From an uncultured Clostridia bacterium (GTDB lineage: Bacteria; Bacillota; Clostridia; Oscillospirales; Ruminococcaceae), in NCBI GenBank assembly GCA_946567425.1, contig CAMNXF010000014.1, positions 11,883-75,882 of the forward strand: a stretch of DNA of 64,000 nucleotides, given 5' to 3'. Below the pieces are notes generated by a model. The model saw only the letters and a program-made list of their open reading frames with translations. It had not been told where the DNA came from and did no database searches. Shown one piece after another: positions 17,042 through 19,320 of this stretch (positions are counted from its first letter, which is position 1; each line of letters opens with the position of its first letter). Position numbers and translations under genes: made by a program.

Positions 17042-17070
17042 TTGACATTTTGTGCAATATGTGGTATAAT
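17042..17070 (+). promoter_or_regulatory. Consensus SigA promoter of the ADP-ribosyltransferase gene
   Basis: TTGACA-17 nt-TATAAT with TG extension; GGAGG RBS at 17088. Confidence 0.85.
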
Positions 17071-17099
17071 ATTACTAATGTAAAGATGGAGGCTAAGAG

Positions 17100-17714
17100 A
17101 TGAATATCGATTTTAAATCATTTAAAAGGGTTACTCCTGATACCGCAGAGGCTTGGGGCAGAAAGAACTATGGGAGCTGGTTGCCGATGCTCCAAAGTCA
17201 AAGCTATGAACCGCAAACGCCTGCTGAGGAGTTCTTCAGATACTATACTCAAGGAGCACACACTTTTTTCAATAAAATCACAAGGTGCGAGGATATAAAC
17301 TCATATGATTTTAGCGAGAGCATTTTTTCAAAAGAAACGTTTGACGACGGCATTGACGAGATTGTTCGTCATCCATCCCCGGACAATATTGTGGTATATA
17401 GATACATACCAAAGCACCTTATAAAACGTATGCTTGAATGGGGAAATTCTAAGTCTTTGAAAAGAGGCTCTGTTCTTGTAGACAAGGGCTTTTTCAGCAC
17501 AACACTGTCAACAGATGCGGTTAGTAATCGGGACTATGCAAATGTGAAAGAACGTCCATTGTTTACGATATATGTGCCCAAAGGAACTCCTTGCGTGTAT
17601 GTAGACCTCATTTCCGATATGCATGAACAAGAAATGCTGTTTGCTCCTGGAATTAGACTTAATGTTATCGGAAAATATTTGTTTGGGAAGTCTGTTGAGT
17701 GCGTTATGTGTTGA
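17100..17714 (+). CDS. Mono-ADP-ribosyltransferase, VIP2/exoenzyme-like R-S-E clade
   Basis: YYTQ...FN helix, VVYR (Arg), GFFSTT (STS-like), HEQEMLF (ExE); no signal peptide. Confidence 0.85.
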   Translation: MNIDFKSFKRVTPDTAEAWGRKNYGSWLPMLQSQSYEPQTPAEEFFRYYTQGAHTFFNKITRCEDINSYDFSESIFSKETFDDGIDEIVRHPSPDNIVVYRYIPKHLIKRMLEWGNSKSLKRGSVLVDKGFFSTTLSTDAVSNRDYANVKERPLFTIYVPKGTPCVYVDLISDMHEQEMLFAPGIRLNVIGKYLFGKSVECVMC

Positions 17715-17868
17715 CACATCCTTCAATAATTTGATGCTGAAAAGCCATATGGAACCGGGTTTTAGAGCAGACGCAGTAACATCTGTTGAGAGTGACAACA
17801 AATTAATCAAATTGTTTTATAGTGTATAATTAGGGTGTTCGGTAATAAGTAACTATGGAGGGTACATC

Positions 17869-19320
17869 ATGAGCGATTTTCTCTCTGAAATTAGAAAGAT
17901 TCCAACATGCGACATCATAAGGAACCTATCTTATATGTCTATTAATATGTTTAAAAGTGGGAAATACCAAATCCCACTGAAATTAGTGCGCAATCAAAGT
18001 GGGGTTATGAGGTGCGCTAAAGTAATTTTATTGGCATGGGATATTCCAAGCATTGAATTCTTGTCTGTCAAATACAGCAATGACTATCGCAACTCCCACA
18101 AGAAAATCCAACCAGCGCTATTAGTGAACTATTATAGAGAATATGAAAACGATCGATCATCATTTCCTGAAAACGCCAGCATAAATACAATTTTTAGATC
18201 CATTCTCGGAATGACATCTGAACAGTTTTTGTATCAAGAGTTATGGAGACTGTTTGAAAAGTTTAACCGGGATTACCATATTCTACTGGCTGCGAAGGGC
18301 TATAAACATAGAGAGGGCTTAGATATTAACGCTATAACGTGTGCAACATTCGGGATTTCTGCTGATGATTACATTGCGGTATTGCTTATTGTGTTTTGGC
18401 TCTGTAGCCAACACCCGAATCCTCTTGATGCACCCGAAAATTTGTACAGAAAAAAAGATGCAACAGTTCTCACAAAGGAGAATATAACCAAATTTGTTGA
18501 GTATTACTCATGCACATATGAAGAGATACGAAAATCGCCTTTGGGCAAGCAATTATTGTATTCAAAACCGTTCATTAAAACTTCTAAGGGAGCATATCTT
18601 TCCTCAAGCCTATTTCTTGTTGCAATGATCGTTAATAATGGATTATATTGGCTTGCTCGAGATTATTATCATTCACAAAAAAGCAACTTTTTTGTGAATG
18701 TTTTTGGTGAAGTTTTTGAGGATTATATTGAAGAGCTTGCATCTAAATATTGGCAGAATGGCAAGTGGGAAAAGCTACCAGAAGGAAAAGAGAAAAGCGC
18801 AGACTATCTTTTTGATTTCGATAACCTTAAAATGCTTATCGAATGTAAAACATCTTTGCTTGCATTGGACGCAAAACAACAGGTTCCCAATATTGCTAAC
18901 CTCAATAAATTTTTTGAACATACAATTAGAGAATCTTATGAACAGTTAAACAGCAGTTACTCTAAACTTGCACCGTCTTCTGAAGTGCCGATAATAAAAG
19001 TGATTTTACTTTACGACGAGTTCTCAAACACTGCAATTATCGAAAGATCCATACCGGAAATTTTCGATCACGATCATTTGTGTTATGTTATGACTATAAG
19101 TGAATTTGAGGTTTTGCTATATACCCATAGGTATAGTCAAACCAAACATACACAGATTATATCCCAAATTCTTCAAAACGGCAAGCGAGAACAAAAGCAG
19201 TCTTTCGGAAGTATCTTAGATAACCTTTCTTTATATAACAATAATGGTCACTTTGAGGGGGATATGAATTATTTTTCCAAATTGTTAGACCACTTTGGAA
19301 TTCAGTTGAAAGATGACTAA
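17869..19320 (+). CDS. Hypothetical protein with C-terminal PD-(D/E)xK (NERD/restriction-like) nuclease domain
   Basis: FGEVFEDYI, SADYLF..LIECKTS, downstream YEQL; own TG-TATAAT and GGAGGG RBS. Confidence 0.7.
   Translation: MSDFLSEIRKIPTCDIIRNLSYMSINMFKSGKYQIPLKLVRNQSGVMRCAKVILLAWDIPSIEFLSVKYSNDYRNSHKKIQPALLVNYYREYENDRSSFPENASINTIFRSILGMTSEQFLYQELWRLFEKFNRDYHILLAAKGYKHREGLDINAITCATFGISADDYIAVLLIVFWLCSQHPNPLDAPENLYRKKDATVLTKENITKFVEYYSCTYEEIRKSPLGKQLLYSKPFIKTSKGAYLSSSLFLVAMIVNNGLYWLARDYYHSQKSNFFVNVFGEVFEDYIEELASKYWQNGKWEKLPEGKEKSADYLFDFDNLKMLIECKTSLLALDAKQQVPNIANLNKFFEHTIRESYEQLNSSYSKLAPSSEVPIIKVILLYDEFSNTAIIERSIPEIFDHDHLCYVMTISEFEVLLYTHRYSQTKHTQIISQILQNGKREQKQSFGSILDNLSLYNNNGHFEGDMNYFSKLLDHFGIQLKDD

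Follow-up and report, generated by a model that had tools for sequence, protein, structure and literature searches.

Adjacent ADP-ribosyltransferase and GapS1-like nuclease genes in a low-GC island of an uncultured Clostridia bacterium: probably two independent single-gene cassettes

Introduction

In the genome of an uncultured Clostridia bacterium of the family Ruminococcaceae, a gene for a small ADP-ribosyltransferase (ART) is followed on the same strand, 154 bp downstream, by a gene for a 483-amino-acid protein with a nuclease-type motif. Two questions are raised by this arrangement: (i) whether the two genes constitute one defence or toxin system or two separate ones; and (ii) what each of them might do. 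The stretch analysed, called the window here, comprises 64,000 nucleotides of contig CAMNXF010000014.1 (positions 11,883 to 75,882 of the forward strand; GenBank assembly GCA_946567425.1), and coordinates given without a locus handle are positions within it. An earlier interpretation made without database searches, referred to below as the sequence-only reading, had proposed either a two-gene anti-phage system or two adjacent single-gene systems. Both of the open reading frames (ORFs) that it described are present, as is the promoter that it placed ahead of them:

17042..17070, plus strand, sigma-A-type consensus promoter of the ART gene (TTGACA-17-TATAAT, with a TG extension)
17100..17714, plus strand, stand-alone 204-amino-acid (204-aa) R-S-ExE ART with a C3/VIP2-like fold
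17869..19320, plus strand, 483-aa GapS1-like protein with helical N-terminal and middle parts and, at the C-terminus, a PD-(D/E)xK core (E284/D285, D312, E325-x-K327)

We find that the two genes occur independently of each other in other genomes, and we think it probable, if by no means certain, that they are two independent, neighbouring single-gene cassettes within a low-GC island that holds mobile and defence genes and adjoins a tRNA cluster.

Independence of the two genes

Co-occurrence was examined both ways, starting from species-representative genomes that carry a homologue of the 483-aa protein and from 40 relatives of the window's genome. The former contain 14 loci encoding homologues with 46-55% identity to the 483-aa protein. 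None of these has an ART within 10 kb (0/14), and a profile search of the whole genomes found no ART of the same family anywhere in them (0/14). In the reverse direction, two same-genus genomes among the 40 relatives carry the ART (74-75% identity) and no 483-aa homologue of any kind.

Adjacency is restricted to nucleases that are at least 72% identical to that of the window, namely those of loci L015, L016-L019 and L068; beside 483-aa homologues at 67-68% identity the ART is absent. In L068 the ART is frameshifted inside its DKGFFSTT motif and the nuclease is intact. In a tree of ART sequences, paired and unpaired members are interleaved, such that pairing is not monophyletic. The two genes are linked at shallow depth only, within a restricted lineage. 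The sequence-only reading had itself named a failure to co-occur in other genomes as grounds for abandoning its proposal; the failure in both directions refutes the two-gene version of it, and the version with two adjacent single-gene systems fits the evidence, the genes being independent.

The ART

The ART matches the Pfam family PF03496 (ADPrib_exo_Tox) with E=2.8e-12 and 46.8 bits, against a cut-off of 23.4. An alignment of 35 homologues with 41-100% identity shows no variation at the catalytic residues R101, S133-T134-T135 and E176-x-E178, and the R, STT and ExE motifs are intact, as the sequence-only reading claimed. The AlphaFold model has a predicted local distance difference test (pLDDT) score of 94, and the ART fold occupies all 204 residues. 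The structure prediction and Foldseek search that the sequence-only reading suggested as a check lead to C3/VIP2-type enzymes: the model superposes on the ARTs of CDTa, VIP2, C3, Plx2A and iota toxin with E-values of about 1e-11 to 1e-13 (4e-13 among them) and a template modelling (TM) score of about 0.7.

The hallmarks of a secreted C3-like exoenzyme or binary-toxin A component are missing from the protein, which has neither a signal peptide nor an adaptor domain, and there is no binary-toxin B-component gene nearby. Read directly, the N-terminus MNIDFKSFKRVTPDTAEAWGRKNYG is polar and has no hydrophobic signal segment, as had been claimed.

The promoter, described earlier as a perfect SigA promoter, does match the consensus at 12/12 positions and is the sole such site within 16900-19550; a GGAGG ribosome-binding site precedes the ATG, and about 115 nt of the leader are conserved with loci L015, L071 and L075.

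No antitoxin or ADP-ribosylhydrolase (ARH) gene adjoins the ART, and on this point too the earlier description was accurate. The window's own assembly (92% complete) holds no PF03747 hydrolase gene and a single macrodomain gene, which is unlinked. Across the flanks of the ART in its different contexts there is no conserved small ORF that could be a hidden antitoxin. An RNA antitoxin is equally unsupported beside the gene, there being no Rfam match and an unstructured intergenic region (z=0.84). We also considered ARH and macrodomain genes that might track with the ART among 41 relatives; neither does.

Defence models of PADLOC and NCBIfam do not match the ART. The PHROG family phrog_3895, a 'moron/host takeover' ART, matches with E=1.5e-5. 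Viral contigs hold no close relatives of the window's ART, only ARTs of 25-35% identity, which have no more than the generic fold in common with it.

Genomic contexts of the ART

About 30 further ART loci have neighbours other than the 483-aa gene. The ART was seen in about ten distinct contexts, and its neighbours in these are mostly defence genes, including the following:

GajA and GajB (Gabija), PADLOC E=1e-257 and 1e-215
ToxN, convergent with the ART, Pfam PF13958 E=5.3e-32
an MmeI-type restriction-modification (RM) enzyme of 942 aa
a Tmn/YobI-type nucleoside triphosphatase, PADLOC E=2e-65 (L071)
a PtuA/AriA-like ATPase with an FRG/PDC-S15 protein, PADLOC E=4e-38 and 1e-46
DUF2971 and Schlafen/prokaryotic Argonaute (pAgo)-associated proteins, by Pfam and PADLOC matches
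a CoiA-like nuclease, by Pfam match

Recombinases, integrases or elements of the insertion sequence family IS3 often abut the gene. Between contexts, nucleotide homology contracts to the ORF and its ribosome-binding site (17065-17712 in the window), and downstream of identical ART alleles one finds three different genes. The ART travels as a single-ORF cassette through the defence islands of gut Clostridia.

Two of these settings have features of their own. In a set of human-gut metagenome contigs (L033-L053), a constant flank lies downstream of guaA, consisting of DUF4869, an AAA_22-like gene, a gene for an uncharacterised 225-aa protein, and the ART. The cargo after the ART alternates among these contigs, being a PDC-S31-like gene, a gene for a protein of about 1220 aa (L035), or DUF2971 plus Schlafen, and the cargo breakpoints lie at most 41 nt from the ART stop codon. 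The locus is a hotspot for defence cargo, with the ART at its border. In a same-genus genome (G015, L020:6277-10188), an ART with 74% identity stands between genes for a 527-aa PtuA/AriA-like AAA_15/21 ATPase and a 510-aa FRG/PDC-S15 protein, all three on one strand and separated by 140 and 40 bp. The trio may be a system built on ATPase and ART, or each gene may be a cassette of its own.

The 483-aa nuclease

The nuclease-type motif that had been noticed in the second gene, AD..ECK, corresponds to A311-D312...E325-C326-K327. The residues D312, E325 and K327 show no substitution in any of 35 homologues, nor do their counterparts in 40 distant relatives (D336, E349 and K351 of alignment A4). 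In the structural model (pLDDT 90), D312 directly precedes a strand at 313-316, and E325-x-K327 lies on a strand at 321-327. The motif thereby falls on consecutive strands, as in the alpha-beta-beta-beta-alpha-beta core of the PD-(D/E)xK superfamily, in which strands 2 and 3 bear D...(D/E)xK. Foldseek matches are weak and are to PD-(D/E)xK nuclease domains only, namely the small subunit of R.BspD6I (probability 1.0, TM score normalised to the target (TMt) 0.53), Card1 and Can2; all E-values exceed 1e-3, and structural support for the PD-(D/E)xK superfamily is accordingly moderate. The search against the PDB gave no strong match and no solved GapS1-like structure. A PDB search by sequence returned a single match at 0.012, which was set aside as spurious.

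Pfam, PADLOC and PHROG have no match to the protein. The PADLOC comparison, one of the checks proposed in the sequence-only reading, was run and came back empty for both proteins. The sole family match is to the NCBIfam model NF047931, antiphage GapS1 (E=5.9e-11), which aligns residues 114-362 with model positions 92-346 of 455, that is, about 250 residues, some of them ahead of the nuclease core. At 41.9 bits, and 33.8 bits in a six-frame search of the genome, the match stays far below the curated cut-off of 320. Among 40 distant relatives, 27 match NF047931 and nothing else (best E=1.3e-20); the cut-off is reached by none of the 40, nor by any of 401 sampled genomes of the phylum. Searches of the window's own genome, of 14 control genomes and, by tblastn, of plasmids found no bona fide GapS1.

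GAPS1 itself is a single protein with a C-terminal PD-(D/E)xK domain, in which D313A and K328A abolish defence; its trigger is the T7 capsid protein and the outcome is dormancy (bioRxiv 10.1101/2023.03.28.534373). Because length, motif position and stand-alone habit match those of GAPS1, the 483-aa protein is, as far as its sequence can tell, a divergent sister family within the GapS1 superfamily and not a GapS1 member. The earlier statement that the locus matched no named system holds in full for the ART and needs qualifying for the nuclease, whose one match is to GapS1/GAPS1, as a sister family below the cut-off.

An exhaustive profile search gave 647 cluster representatives of the 483-aa family at E <= 1e-3. 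The family is centred on Clostridia of gut and rumen, and no relatives were found on viral contigs or plasmids. Stand-alone homologues in four species (L002, L003, L011, L012) adjoin MmeI-type (type IIL) RM enzymes of about 940 aa, a family that also adjoins an ART in L032, and one homologue (L070) adjoins a SIR2_2 gene. In the window the gene is equipped with a TGnTATAAT element and a GGAGG ribosome-binding site of its own. A split homologue was noted at L013:10001-15238, with residues 61-392 encoded at 10001-11005 and residues 392-482 at 14963-15238; an insertion of some 4 kb seems to have broken it up.

The island and its flanking elements

The pair lies in a stretch of low GC content (0.36-0.38 between 17 and 20 kb, against about 0.50 elsewhere), in keeping with its earlier description as AT-rich. 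Four further features surround it:

15579..15821, plus strand, low-copy repeat element of about 245 bp with a terminator-like hairpin at its start; left edge of a block common to other genomes
15822..16990, minus strand, IS3-family insertion sequence with a 372-aa transposase at 15826-16944 (Pfam rve, HTH_21, rve_3)
19409..19458, plus strand, hairpin and T-run, likely terminator of the ART/483-aa transcription unit
19520..20373, plus strand, decayed serine recombinase with Resolvase and Recombinase domains; a neighbouring element, outside the pair

The insertion sequence has terminal inverted repeats TGTGTCACTTTT at 15822-15833 and AAAAGTGTGACA at 16979-16990, and it is missing from L015, L068, L020 and L071. 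The idea that the 245-bp repeat is part of it was ruled out, as the inverted repeats begin at 15822, just past the repeat. A diverged copy of the repeat lies at 22189-22268; the window's own genome has three copies, six same-genus genomes have one to four, and outside the genus there are none. In L016 the copies lie at 5702-5945 and 9467-9717, and in L016-L019 a second copy directly follows the 483-aa gene. In related contigs the element thus encloses the IS3-ART-nuclease block on both sides. It has also been found after unrelated cargo genes (GH5, catalase), and it looks like a cassette-junction repeat.

Homology of the window with L016-L019 starts at 15585 and ends exactly at 19320, and the outer flanks vary between contigs. 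Because homology is shared as a block while the flanks differ, the IS3-ART-nuclease unit is judged to transfer as a block, and the persistence of the pair is therefore explained without functional coupling.

Downstream, the likely terminator consists of two inverted-repeat arms, AAAGCTACATTTTTG and CAAAAATGTAGTTTT (19409-19450), with TTCTTTTT after them. The bounds given in the sequence-only reading were an IS3 element and a recombinase; the first is as described, and the second is present in decayed form. Its frame, MSKLKVAAYCRVSTNHE and then an in-frame TAA at codon 18, directly past the catalytic RVST motif, continues beyond that stop, and the C-terminal part is missing: about 280 codons in, once past the Recombinase domain, the gene comes to an end. 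Resolvase ORFs of similarly short length (185-272 aa) recurrently adjoin the ART in L015, L020-22 and L027/28.

A tRNA cluster (Gly, Arg, His, Gln) at 11610-12020 lies directly ahead of the low-GC island. Just past tRNA-Gln, a 20-nt sequence at 12025-12044 is 90% complementary to a repeat at 22373-22392, which is present also at 19376-19403. These repeats are possibly island or recombinase sites.

Discussion

The folds and motifs of the two proteins, the independence of their genes and the defence-island context are direct observations. What we infer beyond them is an anti-phage function for both genes, together with its triggers and targets. By analogy with GAPS1, the 483-aa protein would be inactive until triggered by a phage structural protein, after which it would cleave nucleic acid and arrest growth; its N-terminal and middle helical region would be the putative sensor and its C-terminal PD-(D/E)xK phosphodiesterase the effector. 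The ART would be an orphan cytoplasmic mono-ADP-ribosyltransferase of the arginine type, made from a strong constitutive promoter. Its likeliest mode of action would be NAD-dependent ADP-ribosylation, with an acceptor that is either a protein of the phage or a host protein exposed in infected cells only. An implication of constitutive expression with no antitoxin or hydrolase is that the target is presumably not an essential host protein at steady state. Judged by its context alone, the ART is a candidate new single-gene defence. That it represents a new class of single-gene, antitoxin-free defence, acting by modification of a protein of the phage or of one that the host exposes on infection, is a tentative proposal that we think may well prove wrong.

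Several points weigh against these interpretations. The two genes have no terminator between them in the window, and co-transcription is possible. They have also stayed adjacent over 20-33% protein divergence and in three flank arrangements. The argument for a defence role of the ART is guilt by association alone, over some ten contexts, and an antitoxin-free, constitutively expressed ART that has no sensor domain is hard to account for mechanistically. For the nuclease, the NF047931 score is far under the curated cut-off, and the link to GapS1 was judged by a hidden Markov model profile.

Among the alternatives, the one that survives best, and which is still unlikely, takes the ART out of defence and makes it a toxin or host-manipulation factor of a mobile element (for addiction or anti-defence), or else an exported C3-like exoenzyme. 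Its closest structures are those of secreted toxins and of a Listeria ART-ARH toxin-immunity pair, a PHROG family of 'moron/host takeover' ARTs matches it, and it frequently abuts recombinases, integrases and IS3 elements; however, it has no signal peptide, delivery domain or immunity gene, its relatives on viral contigs are remote (25-35% identity), and bona fide defence systems make up most of its surroundings.

We give rather little credence to a second scenario, in which the genes are separable in general and cooperate in this clade, for example because co-transcription makes their immunity layered or synergistic, or because the ART modifies the nuclease or whatever triggers it. The persistence of the pair over the divergence and flank arrangements just mentioned, its movement as a block with IS3 and the 245-bp element, and the possibility of read-through transcription would all be expected if this were so. 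Physical linkage in a co-transferred block predicts the same persistence, however, and close relatives of the ART (74-75% identity) do without the nuclease, while the ART of L068 is broken.

We think it improbable that the ART just marks the edge of a hotspot for variable cargo, whether as a benign or regulatory enzyme or as a decaying passenger, although different cargo does follow identical ART alleles with breakpoints no more than 41 nt from the stop codon, and the upstream flank of guaA, DUF4869 and the AAA_22-like gene is constant in the human-gut lineage. Against such a role are the invariance of the catalytic residues down to 41% identity, the carriage of the ART alone into about ten unrelated contexts, and its consensus promoter. 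Finally, it is highly improbable that ART and nuclease depend on each other as an obligate two-gene system for defence or toxicity, for although the genes are co-directional neighbours with a 154-bp gap and no intervening terminator, and are kept together in the window, L015, L016-L019 and L068, they are independent genome-wide in both directions, a broken ART stands beside an intact nuclease in L068, pairing is not monophyletic in the ART tree, and the 483-aa gene has its own TGnTATAAT and GGAGG elements.

Two independent single-gene cassettes are thus the reading that we prefer, and each has its own significance. The GapS1-like family, if active, would extend single-protein defence from studies in Vibrio and E. 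coli to a large unannotated clade of Clostridia. The ART is the more valuable and less expected lead. An arginine-type ART that stands alone, and that turns up repeatedly next to Gabija, ToxN, RM, Tmn and other systems with no partner, would, if true, follow a different immune logic, and would be the first protein-targeting ART immunity effector to need no immunity partner.

In the literature on ART-based defences we found only DarTG and CmdTAC. Like the proposed activity of the window's ART, their effectors carry out NAD-dependent ADP-ribosylation in phage defence; unlike it, DarT acts on DNA and CmdT on mRNA, both belong to other ART clades, and both always come with antitoxins (and a chaperone in CmdTAC), whereas the window's ART is found without a conserved partner. 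With the C3 exoenzymes and with VIP2, iota and CDTa (PF03496), the ART shares the fold (TM about 0.7), the R, S-T-T and E-x-E motifs and an N-terminal helical lobe. It differs from them in having 16-21% identity, in lacking a signal peptide, a binding-component adaptor and a eukaryote-facing context, and in that commensal gut Clostridia carry its gene in defence islands. Scored per target, the closest structure is Lmo0066 of Listeria monocytogenes (PDB 8za7; TMt 0.79), which is also small and of similar size; there an ARH immunity protein is encoded adjacently, whereas the window's assembly has no ARH.

The 483-aa protein compares most closely with GapS1/GAPS1. The two differ in that the window's nuclease scores 41.9 bits where the model demands 320, and in that it belongs to a Clostridia-centred family that is unnamed in the sources searched. 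They are alike in being stand-alone proteins of similar length (455 model positions against 483 aa) encoded in mobile or defence islands, and in having a C-terminal PD-(D/E)xK motif at a nearly equal position, D312 and K327 here against the essential D313 and K328 of GAPS1.

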